The position numbers and the translations under genes were made by a program. Below are positions 322-38,478 of a stretch of DNA of 45,171 nt, piece by piece. Location: the sequence record OP251154.1; one strand, written 5' to 3'. Each line of letters starts with the position of its first letter. Position 1 is the stretch's first letter. The DNA is from Escherichia phage TR2. Under the pieces are notes generated by a model. That model was not told the origin of the DNA. It ran no database searches and saw nothing but the letters and a program-made list of their open reading frames with translations.

Positions 322-397
322 TGGTGTTCCGCGCTGGACTCGAACCAGCAACTAAGACTTAGGAGGTCTTTGCGTTATCCTGTTACGCCAGCAGAAC
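322..397 (-). tRNA. tRNA-Arg (anticodon CCU, reads AGG)
   Basis: Manual cloverleaf on minus strand: acceptor GTTCTGC/GCGGAAC (one G-U), D-stem GCGT/ACGC with GG in loop, anticodon stem AAGAC/GTCTT, loop CT-CCT-AA, T-arm GCTGG-TTCGAGT-CCAGC, 3' ACCA. Confidence 0.8.
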
Positions 398-3061: not shown

Positions 3062-3322
3062 TCCTCTCGTTTAGGTTGAATCCATCATATATCGACTTAC
3101 ACACGTAATCAAGTGTAATTTTTGGTAACTTTTAGGTGTGGTTACGCGAAATGGCATCCTAGCCAAGCTATAGCTAAATGTAGTTTGTGGTAACGCCTGT
3201 AACGCATAAATTGGGTGGGGTTGCCCAATACTGGCTATTTCTTCCATAAAATTGCAGATATGTACTCTGATAGGAAAAAACATATATATAGCAGAAGAGC
3301 ACCAGTTACATGACTTACATAC

Positions 3323-3350
3323 AATAATAATAATAATAATAATAATAATA
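3323..3350. repeat. (AAT)9 microsatellite followed by (AT)7 at 3359-3372
   Basis: Perfect trinucleotide repeat read directly; produces the spurious poly-Ile ORF 3252..3509. Confidence 0.9.
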
Positions 3351-3396
3351 GAAAGAAGATATATATATATATTAAGTACTTATAGTGTAAGTCTAG

Positions 3397-3422
3397 GCGT
3401 AGCTTCGCGTAACTCGCGTAAC
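3397..3422. promoter_or_regulatory. three phased iterons GCGTAGC/GCGTAAC/GCGTAAC
   Basis: Starts at 3397, 3407, 3416 (10- and 9-bp spacing); more GTAACGC/GGTTACG sites at 3126-3210 and 3453-3463. Confidence 0.5.
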
Positions 3423-3542
3423 GATAGTGGTTGGCTTACATCGCGCTACGCCGGTTACGTGTATGCGGCAAAATGGCTCGGCCAGAATAAAAATCAACTT
3501 GTATGGTAGTCCATCCACCATTCATTCACCCTCACATCAATA

Positions 3543-3636
3543 ATTGCAAATTCTGCAACAATCAAAAAAATCATTGCATCAGATGCAATATTGCTATATG
3601 TGCAATAATGAGATGAATCATTGCAATAACTGCAAT
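3543..3636. promoter_or_regulatory. array of three ATTGCA-N5-TGCAAT palindromic operator-like sites
   Basis: Sites at 3543-3559 (ATTGCAaattcTGCAAC), 3573-3589 (ATTGCAtcagaTGCAAT), 3620-3636 (ATTGCAataacTGCAAT); same GCA-N5-TGC core as the promoter operator. Confidence 0.5.
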
Positions 3637-3655
3637 AATACATAAACCCAACGAA

Positions 3656-3699
3656 TAGCACTTTTTGCTAATGACAAACATTGGTAACGAGACCATAAT
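3656..3699 (+). promoter_or_regulatory. operator/-10 promoter cassette for the plus-strand early operon
   Basis: TAGCActtttTGCTA at 3656-3670, 23-nt spacer, CATAAT at 3694-3699, leader CATCAACAACGAGGAGAG, ATG at 3727. Confidence 0.55.
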
Positions 3700-4320: not shown

Positions 4321-4481
4321 TGCTATTACCATCTGAGATTAACTATTTTGATCTGGAAGTTATTAGTTCTTACAGCGGCAAGGGCTGGCCTTGCGGGGAA
4401 TGGTTCAACGAGGACTTGCTTGAATCTCACGAGATTATGCTTAAGGCGATTGAGAAGGCGAGAAATAGCACGAATTGCTAA
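4320..4481 (+). CDS. small hypothetical protein (53 aa)
   Basis: Manually translated MLLPSEINYFDLEV...ARNSTNC; ATG overlaps upstream stop; last codons are the operator sequence. Confidence 0.45.
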   Translation: MLLPSEINYFDLEVISSYSGKGWPCGEWFNEDLLESHEIMLKAIEKARNSTNC

Positions 4482-4508
4482 AGCCCTTCGGGGCTTTTGT
4501 TGTATAGT
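4466..4508 (+). promoter_or_regulatory. operator/-10 promoter cassette
   Basis: TAGCAcgaatTGCTA at 4466-4480, 22-nt spacer holding hairpin GCCCttcgGGGC plus T-run, TATAGT at 4503-4508, then CATCGAAACGAAA. Confidence 0.55.
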
Positions 4509-9739: not shown

Positions 9740-10879
9740 TTACATTCCAGGTCGATAGATATGACGACCAACCTCGCCAAACTCTTTGTGATAAACAATC
9801 GCGGCAGCCTGACGATATGAGCGCCACCCCCCTCGTGCTGCATACGCATCCTTGCTTGCTAGTGCTGGATGTACTTCGTCAATACCAAGAGTGCACTCTG
9901 TTACTGTTGCGTGGTGAAAATGCCCGGAATGGCAATAAACGAACTCGCATTCACCAAAGTCTTTCCTGTAATCAGTTGCCATAGCTGCAAGTCTACCTTC
10001 CGCTTTCTTCATTGTGTGACCATGAGTGTAGCCAAGTAGTGTTGAGCCAAATCTTGTCTTGTGCATAATCGCAGGGCTTACATCAACAAAGACACGACTC
10101 TCATTTTCATAAAATGCAGCCATCGCAGCCCGAAGCCAGATCATGCCGCTTTGGTCATGATTTCCCTCGATAATTTGAATGTCAACACTTTTATGCTTTT
10201 TAAGCATCTTTTCTACAGCGCCACGAATTGATCTAATTGCGATGTAGACTAACTTAGCGTAACGGCTATCTTGGTCAAGGCAGTGGCCACTAGCTGGAGT
10301 TACCGCCTCAAGACCATCTGAGTGGAGATAATCACCGCCAACAAGGATGACTGCCTTTTCTGAAGCTGGCGAAACTGATATTGCATGGTCAAAGTATGAG
10401 CCCATTAGTTTTTCTGCCGTTGCCGTGTCATAATTTTCACCAGACTCGTGGCGATGGGCCATCATTCCAATATGTATGTCGAAAATTGGATACAGTGTCA
10501 TTAGGTCAGGGTTTGTATCTTTGCCTGAATGCTTAACTTCCTCACACTTTGGCAACTCAGAACAGAAAGCCTCTCGCGCTTGCTCGAGCATAATTTCAAG
10601 GCGTTCATTATCAACGCTCGTCTTAACCCAGCGCAGCTTCTCATTCCCATCCGCATCAATCATGGTTGAAGTACCCTTGACTAAATAGCCGTCCGGCACT
10701 AACTTCTTGATACCATCATTGCCATGCCCAAACAAACCACTCTTAGCTAACTTACTGCGACGAAGTTCAACGTTGCGAATGTTCATGTCGTACTTCTCCG
10801 CAATCGCCTTGTTAGTCATGCCGTTTTTAAGTTCTTCGATTAGCTGATCGTTGGTAATCTTTGCTACTGTCATTTTCAA
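9740..10879 (-). CDS. calcineurin-like metallophosphoesterase with N-terminal HTH domain
   Basis: Full motif set FDIH, GDYLHSD, GNHD, GYTHGH, GHFHH; N-terminal ~60 aa look like a helix-turn-helix. Confidence 0.65.
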   Translation of the reverse strand: MKMTVAKITNDQLIEELKNGMTNKAIAEKYDMNIRNVELRRSKLAKSGLFGHGNDGIKKLVPDGYLVKGTSTMIDADGNEKLRWVKTSVDNERLEIMLEQAREAFCSELPKCEEVKHSGKDTNPDLMTLYPIFDIHIGMMAHRHESGENYDTATAEKLMGSYFDHAISVSPASEKAVILVGGDYLHSDGLEAVTPASGHCLDQDSRYAKLVYIAIRSIRGAVEKMLKKHKSVDIQIIEGNHDQSGMIWLRAAMAAFYENESRVFVDVSPAIMHKTRFGSTLLGYTHGHTMKKAEGRLAAMATDYRKDFGECEFVYCHSGHFHHATVTECTLGIDEVHPALASKDAYAARGGWRSYRQAAAIVYHKEFGEVGRHIYRPGM

Positions 10880-11994: not shown

Positions 11995-12032
11995 TTTCTT
12001 TCTCTCTTCGTGTGTTTCGTTTCGATGAAGTG

Positions 12033-12075
12033 ATAATACACCACTTCATCAATTCGTCTTTAGCAATTCGTGCTA
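12033..12075 (-). promoter_or_regulatory. operator/-10 promoter cassette
   Basis: Plus 12061-12075 TAGCAattcgTGCTA; -10 TATTAT (plus 12033-12038) inside inverted repeat GATGAAGTG/CACTTCATC; leader CATCGAAACGAAA. Confidence 0.55.
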
Positions 12076-12492
12076 TTTTCTAATCATCTCTGCGAATGCA
12101 GCAAGAAAACCATCTCTGCCGTAGGCAACTCCTGCGAAACCGCCTGATTCCCTTACGCTTTTTAGGAATGACTTTTGCTCATCACTTACTGGGCTAGCCT
12201 GTGTTTTCCCAGCCCTCTTTAGCTCTATTGCGCCAAATGGATAACTTCCTCGTAATGACTCAGGTATTAGAAATAGGCAGTCTGATACGCCTTTAAGAAG
12301 TCCTTTAGCCTGGTCTTTCCTTGCCTGACCAATGCTCTTCATTGATTCATTAACTGTGTGCCAGTAAACAACCTGCGGATAGTTATACTTAACCCAATCA
12401 GAGCAAAAGATTTGTTCGTCGTCTTCCTTCGGGCATGACTTCACCGGGCCGCCATAGAACTCGAGGTAGTCAGTTTTGTCTGTAACTTTCAT
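12073..12492 (-). CDS. VRR-NUC domain nuclease
   Basis: PD-(D/E)XK-like motifs (GVSDCLFL, GAIELKRAGK, SPVSDEQKSFL); ATGA overlap with helicase stop. Confidence 0.6.
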   Translation of the reverse strand: MKVTDKTDYLEFYGGPVKSCPKEDDEQIFCSDWVKYNYPQVVYWHTVNESMKSIGQARKDQAKGLLKGVSDCLFLIPESLRGSYPFGAIELKRAGKTQASPVSDEQKSFLKSVRESGGFAGVAYGRDGFLAAFAEMIRK

Positions 12493-14483
12493 AACAATTC
12501 TCCAAAATTCTTAAAAGCGATTATATCTTTACCTTTGCCGTTTTTTCTATGTGTAACCTGCACTGGTGCGCGGAACTTATCTACGTTCGCCATAATCATT
12601 CTCGCATTGCGAAGTCTGCCAATTCTTGTGGCTTCAGCGCGATTCTCTATATGAGCAAGGCAGAAGTTCTTCCATAGCACGCTGCAAACTCGATGGTCAG
12701 ACTCGGGGTTGAAGAATTCCCATGCATTAAACCGATCTCCGTTATGAGCCATGATATTGTACTTAACAACAATTCCGGTTTGATTCTTACTTAAGCCAAC
12801 TTGAAAATCATAAACAAGAAGGTAATCACCACGACGATACATCTTACCTGTAAGGTTAGCATTGGGGTCTTTAAGCATCTCTCCGCACTCTCGACAGACC
12901 TTCGCTGCTATATCATTGCGAGTCCCGCACCCTTTTTTGATAATAGCCTTTGTCTGCAGGTCTGTAATATCTTCACAAACTGTAAAAGTAAAGAAGTGCT
13001 CACATCTCTTTCCGTCAATCTTATTTCCGCATCTACGAGCAAAAGGCGAATTCTCGTATGAGCAAATTGGGCACACTCGAACCTCTGAATCACCATTGCG
13101 TGATGACTTAAACTTCTCGGCCTGAATCTCTTCAATTATTGGATCAAAGTAAAGTTCAGCCATATCATCAAGTGCGCCAGCAAAGTCCAGGACTAAGTGG
13201 TCATCCTTTTTCATACCAATTTCAATATGTTTCTTCTTGAGAATTCGCATTCCACGACCAAGAAGCTGAATCATTAATGTCAGGCTTCCAATCTTGCGGA
13301 GTATGACACTTGTGTCCCACGGAGGCACCGAAACGCCTGTGGTTAAGCATCCAATCTGAAAAATAATCTTGTACTTTCCGGTCTGGCATTCATCTAGAAT
13401 TTCCCTTCTCTTCTTCTCACCAGTGGAATCAGTGATTATCGCGTAAGGATAACCATCGGGTAGAGCAGCAGCCGCTTCATCGCAGTGCATTTTACCAGCG
13501 CAAGTTACCAGTGCGGCGTTACGTGTTTCAAGTATTTTGATAACGAACCCCATTATCTTTTGTGTCATCGTCTGGTTTTCGTGAATCTTTGCAGCCATTG
13601 CATCCATTTCTTTTTTGCTGAAATCCTTAACGCCATCACTTCCATCAGGTGCAAACTCGCTAAGGTCATAACCCAAATCACCAACCTCACCGTAAACAGT
13701 TGGAACAACGAATCCCAAATCAACCAGGTAACTGGTCGGAACTTGCATTACCGTCTTGCGCCAGAAGCCACGAATATTTGGGTTACTAACTACAATGTGG
13801 TCGTTGTTACGATACGGGCTACCAGTCAAGCCGAATATACGGAGCTCGCGACCATACTTCTCTTTGCAGCGGCGCTTCATTTCAGTGATGATTAGTGTGT
13901 ACTGCGCACGACCAGTTCCAAGCAATCCGGTATTCACTCCATCCTTGAAAACCATTTCGCCTTTCTTGGTGCTCATTTGCTCAAATGTCTCTTCGTTCTC
14001 TTCAGCTTCTACGATATCCATGTGGTCCACCATGTGTGCCTCATCTATTGCGATAACCGCAGGAACATAGTCACCAAGACCCTTAAACAATCCATTGGCA
14101 GCCGTTCCTTCACTAGCCACTATGGTTGGGTAATAAACTGATTTAACGTTAAGGCCAGCGCAATATACGCTATTACGAATGCCAAAGCTGCGAAGTTCTT
14201 CAGCGTTCTGACTGATAATTTCAGACTGGCGAGAAAGTACCATATAAGGAAGGCCAAGTTGCTCCATGCGTTTACCAATCATGGCAATAATGATTGTCTT
14301 GCCAGCCGATACAGACAGGTCTGCGATGAACGGAGCTTCGTACTTAGCAATATTCTTGCCGATTTGGTCGAATGTCACGCACTGGAATGGATACGGCGTA
14401 ATATCTCCAAACTGATAGTCTCTCTGAATCTGCTTAATCTTTTCTTGGTCAAAGTTTGCCACTAAGCGTTCTACTGGAAGCAT
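12489..14483 (-). CDS. SF2 ATP-dependent helicase with Cys-rich zinc-ribbon insert
   Basis: Walker A SVSAGKT, DEAH box IDEAHM, Cys cluster CPICS...CGNK...CRECG. Confidence 0.8.
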   Translation of the reverse strand: MLPVERLVANFDQEKIKQIQRDYQFGDITPYPFQCVTFDQIGKNIAKYEAPFIADLSVSAGKTIIIAMIGKRMEQLGLPYMVLSRQSEIISQNAEELRSFGIRNSVYCAGLNVKSVYYPTIVASEGTAANGLFKGLGDYVPAVIAIDEAHMVDHMDIVEAEENEETFEQMSTKKGEMVFKDGVNTGLLGTGRAQYTLIITEMKRRCKEKYGRELRIFGLTGSPYRNNDHIVVSNPNIRGFWRKTVMQVPTSYLVDLGFVVPTVYGEVGDLGYDLSEFAPDGSDGVKDFSKKEMDAMAAKIHENQTMTQKIMGFVIKILETRNAALVTCAGKMHCDEAAAALPDGYPYAIITDSTGEKKRREILDECQTGKYKIIFQIGCLTTGVSVPPWDTSVILRKIGSLTLMIQLLGRGMRILKKKHIEIGMKKDDHLVLDFAGALDDMAELYFDPIIEEIQAEKFKSSRNGDSEVRVCPICSYENSPFARRCGNKIDGKRCEHFFTFTVCEDITDLQTKAIIKKGCGTRNDIAAKVCRECGEMLKDPNANLTGKMYRRGDYLLVYDFQVGLSKNQTGIVVKYNIMAHNGDRFNAWEFFNPESDHRVCSVLWKNFCLAHIENRAEATRIGRLRNARMIMANVDKFRAPVQVTHRKNGKGKDIIAFKNFGELL

Positions 14484-14524
14484 TTTAAATATCCTGATAG
14501 TTCTTTAGTTCGTTGCATTGATGT

Positions 14525-14566
14525 ATAATAACAGCCATCGAACCCATTGTTTAACAAAAAGTGCTA
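14525..14566 (-). promoter_or_regulatory. operator/-10 promoter cassette for helicase operon, inside a divergent region
   Basis: Plus 14552-14566 TAACAaaaagTGCTA; minus -10 TATTAT at plus 14525-14530 (21-nt spacer) overlaps a plus-strand TATAAT at 14524-14529. Confidence 0.5.
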
Positions 14567-14579
14567 TTGAGGTAATGAG

Positions 14580-15062
14580 ATGTGTGAAATCGACAAGCGA
14601 ACTATTAACGGCAATAACGGAACCGTGCGCACAAAAGACAAAAAGCAACGCAAACGACCATCAGGCTACTACGTATTGAAAGATGAGGTAAAGGCTGGGC
14701 TACGTGCTCGCCTGGAGATGGTTCTTGATTTCTACGGTACAAAGGCGAACATCGCAAAGCAGTTAAATGTGTCCAACCAAGCTGTATCGGAATGGTTTAA
14801 CCGCGGTATGATTTCGGCTCGAGGGGCTCAGCGAGCACATAATGCGTACAAGCGAAATAAGGAGGGATTTCGAGCTACATTCTGCCGACCAGACCTGCAA
14901 TTCGACGGAAACGGAAAACCGCTAACACTTCGATGCAAGAAGCGCCATATGCTTCGCGTAGTTACCGATGCAGAACTAGCAACAAAGCCACCCTGTCGAC
15001 CATGGCGAAAGAATAAGGCCGCTAACGAGGCAGCGCGAAAAGCTAAAGAGCAAGGGAAATAG
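14580..15062 (+). CDS. putative HTH DNA-binding protein (Cro/YdaS-like)
   Basis: HTH-like segment KANIAKQLNVSNQAVSEWFNRG; basic C-terminal half; first gene of plus operon. Confidence 0.5.
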   Translation: MCEIDKRTINGNNGTVRTKDKKQRKRPSGYYVLKDEVKAGLRARLEMVLDFYGTKANIAKQLNVSNQAVSEWFNRGMISARGAQRAHNAYKRNKEGFRATFCRPDLQFDGNGKPLTLRCKKRHMLRVVTDAELATKPPCRPWRKNKAANEAARKAKEQGK

Positions 15063-15102
15063 CACGAATTGATAAACAGTGGCGCTATACATTGTGTATA
15101 GT
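15060..15102 (+). promoter_or_regulatory. operator/-10 promoter cassette
   Basis: TAGCAcgaatTGATA at 15060-15074, 22-nt spacer, TATAGT at 15097-15102. Confidence 0.55.
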
Positions 15103-15128
15103 GCCTTTATTGTTTATGGAGGGTGTAT

Positions 15129-15653
15129 ATGAAAGTTAATGATTTCGTTTATGTTGACGATGAATTTAAATTAAGATGGAAGAGTCGAGGTGCCGAACTC
15201 TTTAAAACAGATAGGTCATCAAAGATCTGGAATAGTAGGTTTGCAGGCAAGAAATGTGGATACATTAGGGATGACGGTTATCTTTCTTTTGAGTTCAAAG
15301 GACGAGCATACAGAAATCACAGGGTGATATGGGAGATTGTAACTGGTAATGAAATAGGTGATAACATGGAGATCGATCATATAGATCATAATACAACAAA
15401 CAACAATATTGAAAACCTTAGAGTTGTTGACAGGAAAGAGAATTGCAAAAATCAACCCATGATGCCCCACAACTCAAGTGGATTCACAGGTGTTTACTGG
15501 TGGTCAACGAGAAACAAATGGAGAGCCCGCATTGAATGTGATGGCAAGGTGAAAACAAAATCATTTGAAGACTTTAATGATGCTGTCGAGTGGAGAAAAG
15601 AAATGAACATAAATCTTGGCTTTCACAAGAATCATGGGGATAAGAAAAAATGA
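15129..15653 (+). CDS. HNH homing endonuclease with AP2 domain
   Basis: HNH motif IDHIDHN...IENLRVV and AP2-like SGFTGVYW...W.A.I; start set at ATG 15129 after GGAGGG. Confidence 0.8.
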   Translation: MKVNDFVYVDDEFKLRWKSRGAELFKTDRSSKIWNSRFAGKKCGYIRDDGYLSFEFKGRAYRNHRVIWEIVTGNEIGDNMEIDHIDHNTTNNNIENLRVVDRKENCKNQPMMPHNSSGFTGVYWWSTRNKWRARIECDGKVKTKSFEDFNDAVEWRKEMNINLGFHKNHGDKKK

Positions 15654-16573
15654 AAACTTATGATAAGAAAGAAGTATTGCCAAGAATGCTGGGGATGTGG
15701 AAAGATGCTCTAATAAATATCTGTGATGCACCTGCGAACTTCTTTAATGGCAAGCACCATCCATGCCTATACTGTGGAGGTCGGGATAGAGCTAGATGGA
15801 CTGATAACCTATCTATAAAAGGTGATGGCGGAAATATATGCAATCAGTGTGGGAACGACACTGGGATAGGATTAATGATGAAGCTTACTGGAATGAACTA
15901 CAGTGAGGCTATAAATACGCTTGGTGACTGGTTAAACCTGGTTCCAGTTGAGGTTGTAGCTAAAGCAAACAAAAGAGCATCAAGAACATCACCATACAAA
16001 ATGGGCGCTCAGATTGACCACGAAAGATGCTTAGAGATAATGGAAAGGACGGAAAGAGTAGAATCAACTCCACTCAGTACATACGAGGGTATCTATAGCG
16101 AGTTCGGCTTTGATGTTGGCAGGACGAAATCAGGAGAACTAATACACGCAGTGCCGTGCTTTATGGCTTATAGTGACGGCGTGTCAGAAGAAATGTGCAA
16201 TGTGATGTTTATCAATGAGGAAGGGGATGTTAGTTATGCTGCAAAAGATTATACTCGCCAATCTGTGGCTGTTATTGGTTCCCTTAAGGATAGTGAGTAC
16301 GCTTATCTGGTCGATAATTGGATTGATGGTGTTCGCGTTCATCTTGCTACTGGCAGTCGCTGCGTTCTTGTTTGCCACTCCAGCTACAACATGGAAATGG
16401 TTGCTTATGCGCTTAGAAACTACAAGTTACGCGTCGCTTGCACTCGCCACTCTTTTGATTTACTCGCCGTTGCTGATGATCGCAATCTTGATGTTGTAAT
16501 GCCAAATGATGATAATTTTTTCAAGTCAGGAATAAGAAAGCGCATATACAAGGCAAGCGAATTACTAGACTAA
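15650..16573 (+). CDS. putative DNA primase (zinc-ribbon N-terminus)
   Basis: Cys4 zinc ribbon HPCLYCGG...CNQCG at N-terminus; replication-module context. Confidence 0.5.
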   Translation: MKTYDKKEVLPRMLGMWKDALINICDAPANFFNGKHHPCLYCGGRDRARWTDNLSIKGDGGNICNQCGNDTGIGLMMKLTGMNYSEAINTLGDWLNLVPVEVVAKANKRASRTSPYKMGAQIDHERCLEIMERTERVESTPLSTYEGIYSEFGFDVGRTKSGELIHAVPCFMAYSDGVSEEMCNVMFINEEGDVSYAAKDYTRQSVAVIGSLKDSEYAYLVDNWIDGVRVHLATGSRCVLVCHSSYNMEMVAYALRNYKLRVACTRHSFDLLAVADDRNLDVVMPNDDNFFKSGIRKRIYKASELLD

Positions 16574-16597: not shown

Positions 16598-16621
16598 CCT
16601 GAAAGATGATACAATCCAACT

Positions 16622-16636
16622 TATCAATTAGTGCTA
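16622..16636. promoter_or_regulatory. orphan operator copy TATCA-N5-TGCTA
   Basis: Palindrome 22 nt upstream of the tail-fibre ATG with no -10 at the canonical spacing in either orientation. Confidence 0.4.
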
Positions 16637-16658: not shown

Positions 16659-18155
16659 ATGGCAATTTATGATTCTGGCACAGCAAGCCTGGCAGCCAAC
16701 GGTACCGTAACTGGTACTGGAACCAACTGGATGGCTCCGCTTACTCTCATTCGTGTAGGCGCCACTATTGTGTTCAAAACTGAACCAGTGAAGATTTACA
16801 CTATCTCTGAAATTATCAGCGATACGCAGATTAATGTATACAACCCAAATTCTGAAACTGTTCCTGCTGGTACTGGTTACGCGATTCTAGCTCATGATGG
16901 GATTACCGTTCAGGGATTGGCACAGGATGTTGCGGAAACTCTGCGCTTCTACCAATCGAGAGAATCTGAGGTTGCAACAGCGGTTGATGTTTTTAAGGAT
17001 TTTAATCAGGATAAATTTGCAAGTGATGTAAATCAAGTAAATACGCAATATGGTGAGATTGTTAATATTGGAGCGCAGGTATCAAATGATGCAAATCAGG
17101 TAGCTTCTGATAAAGACGCAGCAGCGGCATCAGCGCAAGAAGCGGCAGGTTACGCTGACAGCATTAACCCAGGTCTACTTCTGGCTAAAAGCCAGAACCT
17201 GGCAGATCTGGAGAATAAGAAAACAGCAAGGAATAACCTTATGGTTCCTTATCTCTCCTCGTCTCCAATTCCGTCAGGCGTTAACATTGACTCGATTAGT
17301 GGAGTCGAAAATACTGGCATTTATTACCAAAACAACACAGCTAATGCGACCGTTGCCAATGGATATCCTGAAGAAACTGCTGGCACTCTTTTTGTTTACA
17401 GCGCTATAGCGAATGGTGTCAGGCATACTACGCAAGATTATATTCCTTCCAACAAACAAGGCATAACATACAGAAGACAGTACAACTTGGATTCTGGCAC
17501 ATGGAAATGGAGCGCGTGGCAAAGGTTTTTAAGCGTTGAGTCATTCAAAACAATACAGCCTGAGTTTGGTTCTGTTATTAGCGCTACGCGAAATGTAAAG
17601 TCATTCTCGTTAGAAGTGCATGAGCCTAATAGAAATGCCACCATCATGGCTTGGGGCAATAACAACGGAAGACCTTCTGTAGTTGAGTGCAAGCTAGATA
17701 ATGGCTTTCTTTGGTACGCACAACAAAACGCTGATGGAGGAAGGTATTTCGAAGTGAATGGGCCTATTAATGCTACGGCATTTAACCAAACATCTGACAG
17801 AGAAAAGAAAGATAACATTGAAGTTATCTCTGACGCGACTGTAAAGTTACGCATGATGAACGGTTACACCTATACCTTGAAATCTAATGGAATGCCTTAT
17901 GCTGGCGTAATCGCACAGGAGGTTCAAGATGCTATACCGGAAGCGTTTAGTGGTACTTTTGAATACATAGATGCTCACGGTGTAAACCCTGATGGAACTC
18001 CACTGCAACTGGAGAATAGGAGCTACATGGTTGACTATTCCGGCATTACTGGATTGCTTGTTCAGGTTGGGCGAGAGACGGATGATAGGGTGACTAAACT
18101 TGAAAGGGAAGTGGAGGAACTTAAAGCTATTGTGTCAACATTGATTAGCAAATAA
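16659..18155 (+). CDS. tail fibre with C-terminal intramolecular chaperone (peptidase S74-like)
   Basis: C-terminal ~120 aa (DREKKDNIEVISD...YAGVIAQEVQDAIPEAF...) match the autoproteolytic chaperone domain of phage fibres. Confidence 0.75.
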   Translation: MAIYDSGTASLAANGTVTGTGTNWMAPLTLIRVGATIVFKTEPVKIYTISEIISDTQINVYNPNSETVPAGTGYAILAHDGITVQGLAQDVAETLRFYQSRESEVATAVDVFKDFNQDKFASDVNQVNTQYGEIVNIGAQVSNDANQVASDKDAAAASAQEAAGYADSINPGLLLAKSQNLADLENKKTARNNLMVPYLSSSPIPSGVNIDSISGVENTGIYYQNNTANATVANGYPEETAGTLFVYSAIANGVRHTTQDYIPSNKQGITYRRQYNLDSGTWKWSAWQRFLSVESFKTIQPEFGSVISATRNVKSFSLEVHEPNRNATIMAWGNNNGRPSVVECKLDNGFLWYAQQNADGGRYFEVNGPINATAFNQTSDREKKDNIEVISDATVKLRMMNGYTYTLKSNGMPYAGVIAQEVQDAIPEAFSGTFEYIDAHGVNPDGTPLQLENRSYMVDYSGITGLLVQVGRETDDRVTKLEREVEELKAIVSTLISK

Positions 18156-19324: not shown

Positions 19325-19367
19325 ATGATAACCCACCAGTTAATTTTGTCTTTAGCAATTAGTGCTA
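19325..19367 (-). promoter_or_regulatory. operator/-10 promoter cassette
   Basis: Plus 19353-19367 TAGCAattagTGCTA, 22-nt spacer, TATCAT (plus 19325-19330), leader CATTGAAACGA. Confidence 0.55.
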
Positions 19368-19844
19368 TTTACCATGATTTTCATGGAAGCCGTGCTCTAT
19401 TTCAGCCTTGATCCTTGCTGCTTTTGCGTCATCAATATCAGAAAAGCATCCCAGGTGATAATCGCGGCCGTTTACTCTAATATTTGATACGTACTTCGAT
19501 AACCTTTCAACCCATGAAACACCAATAACTCCAGTTTTGTTATTGAATCTAATTGATTGATTCATTGCATTCCCTTGTTTTGTGACAAGCCTTAGGTTTT
19601 CTATTCTGTTATCTGACCTGTCGTGATTTATGTGATCAATAAACATTGCATCATCAATATCACCATTAATCATCTCCCACACAATCCTATGCGACTTGTA
19701 ATACTTACCATCAAACCTAACGTTTATGTAACCATTTGATGAATTTACATGGCCTGCAACCATGCCTTTCCTTGCTCTAGATCCGAAGTTTTTCGCCCAA
19801 ACTAGGTTGCCTGAATCGTATATAAAAACATCATTCCATCCCAT
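19365..19844 (-). CDS. HNH homing endonuclease with AP2 domain
   Basis: IDHINHDRSDNRIENLRLV plus AP2-like NKTGVIGVSW. Confidence 0.8.
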   Translation of the reverse strand: MGWNDVFIYDSGNLVWAKNFGSRARKGMVAGHVNSSNGYINVRFDGKYYKSHRIVWEMINGDIDDAMFIDHINHDRSDNRIENLRLVTKQGNAMNQSIRFNNKTGVIGVSWVERLSKYVSNIRVNGRDYHLGCFSDIDDAKAARIKAEIEHGFHENHGK

Positions 19845-20931: not shown

Positions 20932-21426
20932 TCAAAATAAACCAAGTTGGAATCGTGCACCAACTTCCTCAATTAGCTTCCTAGCTTCCTTCTTCTGCCG
21001 CTTTCTTTCGGTCATTAGCTTGCTGCCTACTTTTCCGATCTGTTCTGAGTCATTGCATAATTCCGAAACCGCTTTTGTTGCCGCATTGAAATCACCAGTT
21101 AGTGCAATGGCTTTCACTTTACTAATTACATCCAAATCCTTAACTGCTTCTTCTAGTTGTTCCCAACGCTTAATGATCGCATAACGCATTTGAGCATTGT
21201 ATCCAGAAACCAGCGTTATTGTCAGGTCTTTTGGTAGATTGTAAATCTTCAATTTCTTGCCGTTTGGTCCATCATTAACAAAACTCAAAAATGAGTTCTG
21301 CTCTAAATTCAATGACTTAAGCATATTCTCTAAATCCCTGATGACGTTATTATGTCTCTTCCCTGTTAGTTCAGCAATCTCTCGGCTGCTCATTGTTTCA
21401 ACTTTCAGTTCTGTAATCTCTTTCAT
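20932..21426 (-). CDS. Rha-family phage regulatory protein
   Basis: SSREIAELTGKRHNNVIRDLENM matches the Rha N-terminal signature; start set at second Met with AAGGTGA SD. Confidence 0.55.
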   Translation of the reverse strand: MKEITELKVETMSSREIAELTGKRHNNVIRDLENMLKSLNLEQNSFLSFVNDGPNGKKLKIYNLPKDLTITLVSGYNAQMRYAIIKRWEQLEEAVKDLDVISKVKAIALTGDFNAATKAVSELCNDSEQIGKVGSKLMTERKRQKKEARKLIEEVGARFQLGLF

Positions 21427-21427
21427 C

Positions 21428-21625
21428 TCAGTCACCTTTAACCTTAACAATCTTAATAGCTTTCAAATCTTCTTCAGTGAAGTACCCGGTCAGACGTTCC
21501 TTGGCTTCTTCCTTTGTTTCAAATCTGTCTGCTTCAGATTTATGGACTGTATATCCAGCGGGTCCGCCAAAGTAGCAATCTCCGAATAGTGCGTTGTTTT
21601 TCTCTTTAATAATGAAATATGGCAT
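21428..21625 (-). CDS. hypothetical protein (65 aa)
   Basis: ORF track. Confidence 0.4.
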   Translation of the reverse strand: MPYFIIKEKNNALFGDCYFGGPAGYTVHKSEADRFETKEEAKERLTGYFTEEDLKAIKIVKVKGD

Positions 21626-22110: not shown

Positions 22111-22277
22111 AGTTACATGATATACACAGTAATATATATAATAATAATAATAAAAGTAAAAGGTTGATATATATAGATATTTTAATGTAACTATGGCGTA
22201 ACTTTGCGTAACTGGGCGTATACGATTTCCCGCGGATGCATATGGTATACATCGAGTTACATCGGTTACGTGTAACC
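22111..22277. repeat. noncoding module B (homolog of module A at 3305..3466)
   Basis: TTACATGA, (AT)4(ATA)4, GATATATATAGATATTTT, iterons, ACATCG, palindrome GGTTAC-GT-GTAACC at 22264-22277. Confidence 0.7.
22196..22222. promoter_or_regulatory. three phased iterons GCGTAAC/GCGTAAC/GCGTATA
   Basis: Starts at 22196, 22206, 22216 (exact 10-bp spacing). Confidence 0.5.
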
Positions 22278-22304
22278 ATGATTTATGGGTAGACTTGAGA
22301 TAAA

Positions 22305-38419: not shown

Positions 38420-38435
38420 TGTTTTGATGGAAACA

Positions 38436-38478
38436 AAAATACCACCTTTCGGTGGTATTGTTTTGTCATTTAGTGCTA
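38436..38478 (-). promoter_or_regulatory. operator/-10 promoter cassette with embedded terminator hairpin (weak -10)
   Basis: Gene-orientation TAGCActaaaTGACA (plus 38464-38478), 22-nt spacer holding ATACCACCgaaaGGTGGTAT, TATTTT, leader CATCAAAACAA. Confidence 0.4.

Follow-up and report, generated by a model that had tools for sequence, protein, structure and literature searches.

How a virulent phage could use one short gap to fire a replication operon and, at the same time, turn down a regulator gene that faces the other way is the question raised by the helicase/regulator locus of Escherichia phage TR2 (sequence record OP251154.1). The stretch analysed, referred to here as the window, is the complete genome of 45,171 bp and belongs to a T1-like virulent siphophage (Drexlerviridae). 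In the window a 96-bp gap separates a leftward helicase operon from a rightward gene encoding a 160-aa Cro-like helix-turn-helix (HTH) protein, referred to below as the HTH or regulator gene. The gap contains a -10 hexamer that can be read on both strands and one copy of the 21-nucleotide (nt) direct repeat characteristic of the Drexlerviridae. We consider, with a probability of roughly 0.55, that the gap acts as one conserved bidirectional sigma70 promoter at which a factor bound to the repeat switches on the helicase operon and lowers expression of the regulator gene.

The shared -10 hexamer and its conservation

The rightward (regulator) -10 is a perfect TATAAT (6/6; 14524..14529, + strand), equivalent to promoter P57 of phage TLS, and the leftward (helicase) -10 is the extended element TGtTATTAT (14525..14533, - strand, with TGt at 14533-14531). 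The original prediction had placed the + strand TATAAT over a - strand TATTAT (14525-14530) and an “operator” (TAACAAAAAGTGCTA; 14552-14566) between that TATAAT and the HTH start codon at 14580; reading of the sequence confirmed both placements, the two hexamers being offset by one base. Its description of the two -10 elements as “face-to-face” is the wrong term, as the promoters are divergent and interleaved and their transcripts run apart. A hexamer TAAACA (4/6; 14548..14553, - strand) occupies the -35 position of the helicase promoter, where it overlaps the promoter-proximal end of the repeat, and a promoter scan recovered this arm as a - strand TAAACA-17-TATTAT with TG in the gap. The candidate rightward -35, TTCTTT (14501..14506, + strand), lies 17 nt from the -10 and is among the weakest seen in relatives. 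The helicase transcript is expected to start at an A at 14518 (- strand), 7 nt past the -10 and placed by geometry only; the predicted start is followed by CATCAATGCAACGAAC, the local version of a box (CATCGAAACGA) found in other promoters built on the repeat (“cassette” promoters, see below). The regulator transcript is expected to start at 14536 (+ strand, +/- 2 nt), 18 bp from the expected helicase start. The hexamer offset of 1 entails a start spacing of 18 bp, and the geometry would fit the 18-bp class of bacterial bidirectional promoters if both starts are as predicted. Each arm has its upstream elements in the leader of the other, and each has elements specific to its direction, namely TGn, TAAACA and the repeat for the - arm and the -35 (2/6 here) for the + arm.

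Judged from the window by itself, the overlap does not exceed chance and is close to trivial, because an A after TATTAT necessarily produces TATAAT on the opposite strand; TATAATA itself is not enriched in the window (4 copies vs 6.6 expected). TATAAT is nevertheless by far the best + strand hexamer in the helicase/HTH gap, and a whole-window scan for strong sigma70 promoters gave few intergenic candidates and none better upstream of the HTH gene. In the list of open reading frames (ORFs) no + strand gene lies upstream of the HTH gene, and the HTH promoter must therefore be in or near the gap.

The analysis was extended to relatives by gathering the helicase/HTH gap from more than 100 loci, giving 56 distinct sequences from Braunvirinae, Tempevirinae, Tunavirinae, Webervirus and Sauletekiovirus that form 18 clusters with flanks <75% identical between clusters. 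Outside these 56, the comparison took in Vibrio phage Vc1 and five very distant metagenomic lineages, which gave a concordant picture. The + hexamer is TATAAT in 44/56 sequences and matches the consensus at 5/6 or better in all 56, the remaining versions being TACAAT, TATCAT, AATAAT, TATACT, TAGAAT or CATAAT, and the - hexamer is TATTAT in 47/56. Compared with the - hexamer of the same gap, the + hexamer is the better match to consensus in 50 sequences, an equal match in six and a worse one in none, and the offset between the two is 1 in 52/56. A + strand -35 of at least 4/6, located 16-18 nt upstream, is found in 40/56, reading for example TTGTCA in Webervirus, TTGACT in Tlsvirus and TTAACA in Pantoea phage AAS23, or elsewhere TTGAGT or TTGAAT. 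Among the sequences kept apart, the five most divergent lineages all have a + strand TATAAT and Vc1 has GATGAT (4/6).

An A at -6 of the helicase promoter is present in 15/18 clusters vs 5/31 other cassettes (Fisher 8e-6, overstated by shared ancestry), and a non-consensus T at -9 in 15/18 clusters vs 4/31 other cassettes (Fisher 1.4e-6, overstated for the same reason), the 31 comparison cassettes being the other cassettes of the window and of phage U136B. These are exactly the two bases that perfect the + hexamer. As controls, the antisense hexamers of the other cassettes match the consensus at 1-5/6, and the -10 of the orthologous primase cassette drifts freely without such fixation. A further indication comes from TLS, where Supplementary Table S1 of the re-annotation lists only three sigma70-type intergenic promoters genome-wide under strict criteria, one of them P57 (ttgact-17-tatcat; ttgactaaatgccatttgcggcatatcat) (PMC11447400). 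P57 is the orthologue of the rightward arm, with the TLS repeat copy DR11 lying between it and its gene, and the identical sequence is found at locus L021. Together these comparisons make it credible that the HTH gene has a conserved + strand promoter of its own, which shares its -10 with the helicase cassette promoter.

The 21-nt repeat, its cassettes and a reversed copy

The repeat copy in the gap (caATAGCACtttTTGtTAAAc; 14549..14569, - strand, with its palindromic core at 14552-14566) matches the TLS consensus and belongs to the “T” subgroup, like DR11 (ctatagcactttttgctaaaa). In TLS, 18 intergenic 21-nt repeats with consensus aaATAGCACnnnTTGnTAAAA were reported, the repeat being present also in T1, Rtp and Rogue1, and stoperators, enhancer sites and UP-like elements were put forward by the authors as options for a function that they posed as an open question (PMC11447400). 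A literature search for the repeat sequence or for transcript maps of T1-like phages matched this paper alone. The core is an imperfect 15-mer palindrome, TAGCA-N5-TGCTA, of which the window holds 18 copies with at most one mismatch vs 2.0 expected. In the gap the repeat points toward the helicase gene, its centre (14559) lying 76 nt from the helicase ATG at 14483 and, counted from the predicted start at 14518, at about -41 of the helicase promoter, a class II-type position (~-41.5). Relative to the predicted regulator start, the same palindrome spans about +17 to +31 of the regulator transcript, and in all relatives a distance of 11-16 nt separates the repeat from the HTH start codon that follows it.

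About 20 copies of the repeat align as cassette promoters of ~65 nt, with the order AATAGCAC-N3/4-TTGnTAAAGAC, spacer, -10 hexamer and, at the expected start, the box CATCGAAACGA; about half of them have a TGn extended -10. Palindrome and -10 are separated by a constant 21-23 nt, both in the window and in U136B, with the palindrome centre at -41/-42. Cassettes are oriented with their genes and precede replication, lysis, head, tail and small-ORF modules. Their -35 positions read TAAACA, TAAAGA or AAGACA (3-4/6), and some cassettes reach 10/12 overall. The promoter-proximal half of the repeat, TTGnTA, was considered as the true -35 and rejected, its distance from the -10 being 21-22 nt in every cassette. 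A role of the repeat at the RNA level in the HTH leader was likewise rejected, the 65-nt leader folding worse than shuffled sequences (z = +2.1). The leader gave no Rfam match, and the lack of structure and of a match therefore favours a role at the DNA level.

The next cassette promoter to the right of the gap (repeat core 15060-15074, -10 TATAGT 15097-15102, + strand) serves the HNH and primase genes. It occupies 15060..15102 and lies within the terminator hairpin that ends the HTH transcript. In many cassettes (15081-15115, 4480-4500, 38430-38450 and others) the spacer between repeat and -10 is a G+C-rich hairpin followed by a T run, with the -10 in the loop or 3' arm, so that the terminator of one unit is fused with the next promoter. 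A separate set of at least four palindromes, (A)TTGCA-N5-TGCAA(T), is found at 3532-3655, just upstream of a cassette at 3656 (+ strand); these share the 5-N5-5 geometry of the repeat core with another half-site and could be the target of a different protein.

A second arrangement of the repeat occurs before the tail-fibre gene. After the primase terminator, the + strand carries an extended -10, TGaTACAAT (16607-16615), followed 6 nt further on, approximately at the expected transcript start, by a reversed copy of the repeat (TATCAATTAGTGCTA; 16622-16636), a Shine-Dalgarno sequence and the tail-fibre ATG at 16659. The order of sigma70-type -10, reversed repeat and Shine-Dalgarno sequence is kept at the orthologous loci of six other genera (primase/tail-fibre gaps L016, L019, L020, L022, L105 and L106), and no cassette-type -10 was found on the opposite strand of these gaps. 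In some primase/tail-fibre gaps the repeat half-site GTGCTAT also overlaps the -10. The presence of the reversed repeat without an opposite cassette -10 indicates that the repeat has a role independent of the fixed -10 spacing. As the tail-fibre copy permits only a role downstream of the start, it supports an operator-like action and counts against a pure UP-element reading.

A proposed two-way switch and the candidate readers of the repeat

As judged from sequence and comparison, the rightward arm is an ordinary, repeat-independent promoter serving the Cro-like gene, and the leftward arm one of the ~20 cassette promoters, with the repeat where a good -35 would normally be. The arms are interleaved, and the repeat of the helicase promoter therefore falls inside the regulator leader. 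In the mechanism that we propose, the perfect + strand -10 would let the regulator gene fire before the factor builds up. A sequence-specific factor on the repeat could then recruit or stabilise RNA polymerase in the leftward direction and, with the shared -10 holding one polymerase at a time, the regulator gene would be silenced, probably in the main by polymerase competition and only secondarily by a roadblock. Phages of this type have no RNA polymerase of their own, as stated for TLS (PMC11447400).

Precedents for such a promoter come from E. coli, as set out in Warman et al. 2026 NAR (PMC12825309) and in Warman et al. 2021 Nat Microbiol as cited therein. The 18-bp class is the commonest type of bidirectional promoter; the symmetry of the -10 gives divergent starts, and two polymerases exclude each other (PMC12825309). 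At PacrA/acrR, a CRP site at -40.5 or -60.5 activates one arm and represses the other, and at PsoxS/soxR the regulator SoxR turns soxS on while silencing soxR, the gene that encodes it, from the promoter common to both (PMC12825309). Repression is usually due to polymerase competition, and a bound factor that does not activate is displaced by the transcribing enzyme and forms no roadblock (PMC12825309). The original prediction, that one bound regulator could activate the helicase operon while blocking the HTH gene, is thus in part supported by the repeat positions and the E. coli precedent. “Blocking” by the operator is less likely than competition, because a non-activating bound factor is displaced in that precedent.

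Several points weigh against the proposed switch. The promoter scan made no + strand call at this locus, where the + strand -35 TTCTTT matches at only 2/6. Some cassettes are respectable sigma70 promoters unaided, such as TAAACA-18-TATAAT (8512) and ATGACA-17-CATAAT (3671), together with those having the partial -35 AAGACA, so that nothing in the sequence demands activation by a bound factor. At Veterinaerplatzvirus-like loci (L002, L004, L008 and L009) the + hexamer is TACAAT and lies 3 nt further left, giving a predicted start spacing of 15 bp. The conservation of TATAATA is not fully separable between the strands, and the lineages compared are not independent. Finally, transcript 5' ends, binding data and expression timing for T1-like phages were not found in the searched literature.

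As to the factor, the original prediction had raised the HTH protein as a possibility. It belongs to the T1 gp23 family (PHROG 2856, “transcriptional regulator”), and its best Pfam scores, 25.5 bits for P22_Cro (PF14549; cut-off 30.2) and 20.9 for YdaS (PF15943; cut-off 30), are below the gathering thresholds; some orthologues carry precomputed Pfam hits. An AlphaFold2 (AF2) structure prediction, made for the family from database homologues, gave a model with a predicted local distance difference test score (pLDDT) of 88 and a Cro/cI-type core, predicted to have the all-alpha Cro/lambda-repressor-like fold. The part most conserved family-wide is an N-terminal arm, DKR..NGNNGT.RG.DK..RK (residues 5-25, DNA 14580-14660), which is near-invariant, more so than the HTH, and predicted to be disordered (pLDDT about 50). 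A C-terminal RPDL motif is also invariant in the family.

Covariation of protein and repeat was assessed in six divergent lineages whose proteins share 32-50% identity with that of the window (P0121, P0123, P0124, P0117, P0236 and the protein of Vibrio phage Vc1). Only two buried core residues of the predicted recognition helix are kept across them, the helix reading SNQAVSEWFNR, NPLEYREMIRI, KRHRVARWVEK, NGLRMVLWKQK or KYATVYRWKKV, for example. In the genomes of the same six lineages the repeat is unchanged and the gap has a + strand TATAAT (GATGAT in Vc1). The exposed helix-3 residues thus differ in every divergent lineage while the repeat stays constant, a result that goes against the HTH protein as the regulator. 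As the helix is variable and the repeat invariant, a classical model with the recognition helix as reading head does not fit. A scan of viral contigs for the divergent subfamily gave mainstream relatives only.

There is nevertheless a modest probability that the Cro-like protein itself reads the repeat as a self-limiting master activator, made early, activating all cassettes and shutting its own gene. The protein is encoded by a core gene that always adjoins a copy of the repeat, its promoter is among the very few that are repeat-independent, the 5-N5-5 palindrome suits an HTH dimer, and its N-terminal arm is as invariant as the repeat. These points are to be set against the failed covariation in the six lineages and the P22_Cro and YdaS matches under curated cut-offs, and the conserved arm, being predicted disordered, could equally bind a host protein. 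Possible readers of the repeat are the Cro-like protein acting via its invariant N-terminal arm, a conserved host component or a conserved 379-aa exonuclease/phosphoesterase (PHROG 704; 9740-10879, - strand). The N-terminal ~45 aa of the exonuclease weakly resemble the LuxR/sigma-region-4 type of HTH (GerE E = 0.025; FixJ/ComA E about 0.6), and its exposed helix-3 residues (xxRxVExR..KL) are kept across the same very divergent T1-like phages. The putative LuxR/sigma-region-4-like HTH is a lead and not a finding. It is doubtful, but conceivable, that one phage protein (the Cro-like protein via its arm, or the exonuclease with its sigma-region-4-like head) controls nearly the whole T1-like transcription programme via the repeat, with the helicase/regulator locus as an “orientation flip” switch. 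If so, the factor would turn polymerase round on the shared -10, firing the replication operon and silencing the only early, repeat-independent regulator promoter. The window also has a gene for a phage regulatory protein of the Rha family (20932-21450, - strand; Pfam Phage_pRha 3.5e-17), which is accessory in this lineage.

We regard it as unlikely that the repeat has no dedicated regulator and is read by host polymerase, as an UP-like or extended upstream element, or by a host factor, in which case both arms would be constitutive, their ratio would depend on strength and competition, and there would be no switch. A conserved host reader would fit the invariance of the repeat in phages of Escherichia, Klebsiella, Pantoea and Vibrio; UP-like elements are among the options of the TLS authors (PMC11447400), several cassettes match the sigma70 consensus at 9-10/12 unaided, and the TGn of about half the cassettes points the same way. 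However, the invariant core AGCAC is not A/T-rich, unlike UP elements (Estrem/Gourse consensus), TTGnTA is too distant from the -10 (21-22 nt) to serve as a -35, the palindromic form suggests a dimeric protein, and the reversed repeats that lie just past the tail-fibre and regulator promoters would be left without a role. A comparison of the repeat, by eye and with no formal test, with consensus sequences for IHF, OxyR, CRP, FNR and Fis gave no convincing fit.

It is distinctly improbable that the repeat is purely a repressor site (an operator or “stoperator”) that lowers the cassettes and blocks the regulator and tail-fibre transcripts, activating nothing. The stoperator analogy was raised by the TLS authors (PMC11447400), the repeat overlaps the -35 position of the cassettes and, at two promoters of the sigma70 type, is found past the start, and Cro-family proteins are classically repressors. 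Yet these are virulent phages with the repeat before replication, lysis, head and tail operons alike, where repressing everything would serve no evident purpose; the rigid spacing of 21-23 nt, kept family-wide in ~20 copies, is typical of an activator-polymerase contact and not of repression; and L5 stoperators lie within transcribed regions, whereas most repeats here are upstream of the -10. Least probable of all is that the + strand TATAAT reflects no more than the symmetry of the -10 and is silent, the HTH gene being transcribed from elsewhere and the locus being just another cassette promoter, since, even if any -10 yields nAnnnT on the opposite strand, TATAATA is not over-represented in the window and the local + strand -35 is poor and escapes the scan, the HTH gene needs a promoter near the gap, TATAAT is far the best + strand hexamer there, its perfecting bases are kept in 15/18 clusters vs 5/31 and 4/31 other cassettes, most genera have a + strand -35 of 4-5/6 at 16-17 nt, and the promoter was predicted independently in TLS.

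Genomic context and comparison with known systems

The region at 12000-16000 of the window is 99.6-99.8% identical to Escherichia phages TR1, Rao1 and CY1, TR1 being classified in Drexlerviridae; Braunvirinae; Christensenvirus, and relative to Rao1 the window is circularly permuted and reverse-complemented (BLAST). The helicase gene (12489..14483, - strand; Pfam Helicase_C 4.9e-9; “DNA helicase” in the TR1 annotation) heads the leftward operon and is followed by a VRR-NUC nuclease gene (12073-12492, - strand; Pfam VRR_NUC 1.7e-8). Its Shine-Dalgarno sequence AGGA (14492..14495, - strand) adjoins the weak + strand -35, and that of the HTH gene (14580..15062, + strand) is GAGG (14569..14572, + strand). 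The HTH gene belongs to the core set of the family, with tblastn finding it in 824 phage records, and the order helicase (-), gap of ~90 nt, HTH (+), primase (+) is kept in Tunavirinae, Tempevirinae, Webervirus, Sauletekiovirus and Braunvirinae. Genes for HNH_3 homing endonucleases are present at 15123-15653 (+ strand) and 19365-19844 (- strand), the first being an insertion between the HTH and primase genes relative to Rao1, and a tRNA gene is found at 325-397 (- strand; Rfam RF00005, 59 bits). Two long divergent intergenic regions (3284-3470 and 22120-22280) share a composite element that combines runs of (AAT)n and (TA)n with three GCGTAAC-like repeats and CGGTTACGTGTA, and may be control regions of early-promoter or origin type.

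Earlier work had already described the repeat, promoter P57 and bidirectional promoters as a class, together with the principle of activating one arm while repressing the other. What is new is that the repeat, P57 and the bidirectional promoter form one structure, that this structure is conserved across the whole phage family with selection visible, as far as sequence comparison can tell, on the + hexamer, and that the reversed repeat recurs past a second sigma70-type promoter. Among coliphages and Klebsiella phages, the T1-like group is one of the most common. The helicase/HTH locus has the most informative copy of the repeat, which is placed as an activator site would be for one promoter yet falls within the transcript of the other, and the two promoters have a -10 in common. 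A fragment of ~14440-14620 thus bears on repeat binding, on activation vs repression and on polymerase competition in a natural phage setting, such competition having so far been shown for only a few promoters of E. coli; phage engineers would also gain a compact two-output promoter part from a positive result.

TLS shows the same repeat, orientation rule and start-codon distance, with DR11 and P57 orthologous to 14549-14569 and to the + arm. The TLS paper lists repeat and promoter separately, without the fixed-distance -10, the -10 shared by P57 and DR11, the reversed tail-fibre repeat or a candidate reader. The locus resembles E. coli bidirectional promoters in the one-base hexamer offset, with A-11 of one arm pairing with T-7 of the other; it resembles PacrA/acrR with CRP in having a candidate activator site at about the -40.5 position on the side of one arm, and soxS/soxR in that the arm proposed to be repressed is that of a regulator gene. 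Unlike the E. coli cases, it is found in virulent phages and conserved across a whole virus family, with starts and regulation being inferred; the arm proposed to be activated belongs to a set of ~20 promoters with one common upstream repeat, and the divergent gene may not be the one that encodes the factor.

The Cro-like protein was also compared with Cro/cI-type proteins (Xfaso 1 Cro, 3bd1; P22 Cro, 1rzs; N15 Cro, 2hin) and differs from known Cro in having an extra conserved N-terminal arm and C-terminal extensions that contain RPDL; its recognition helix is not conserved among orthologues, unlike that of regulators with a common target. The C proteins of restriction-modification systems provide another comparison, as they bind palindromes just upstream of their own gene, which they both activate and repress. 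Among phages, cI of lambda bound at OR2, near -42, activates PRM and represses the divergent PR, and protein p4 of phi29, bound upstream at A3/A2b, activates one promoter and represses the divergent one in a compact switch. Both systems use distinct promoters whose starts lie tens of bp from each other and which have no -10 in common, unlike those of the helicase/HTH gap. Repression in lambda and phi29 is exerted by an operator on the other core promoter, whereas here the site lies downstream of the other predicted start and polymerase competition is the likely cause.

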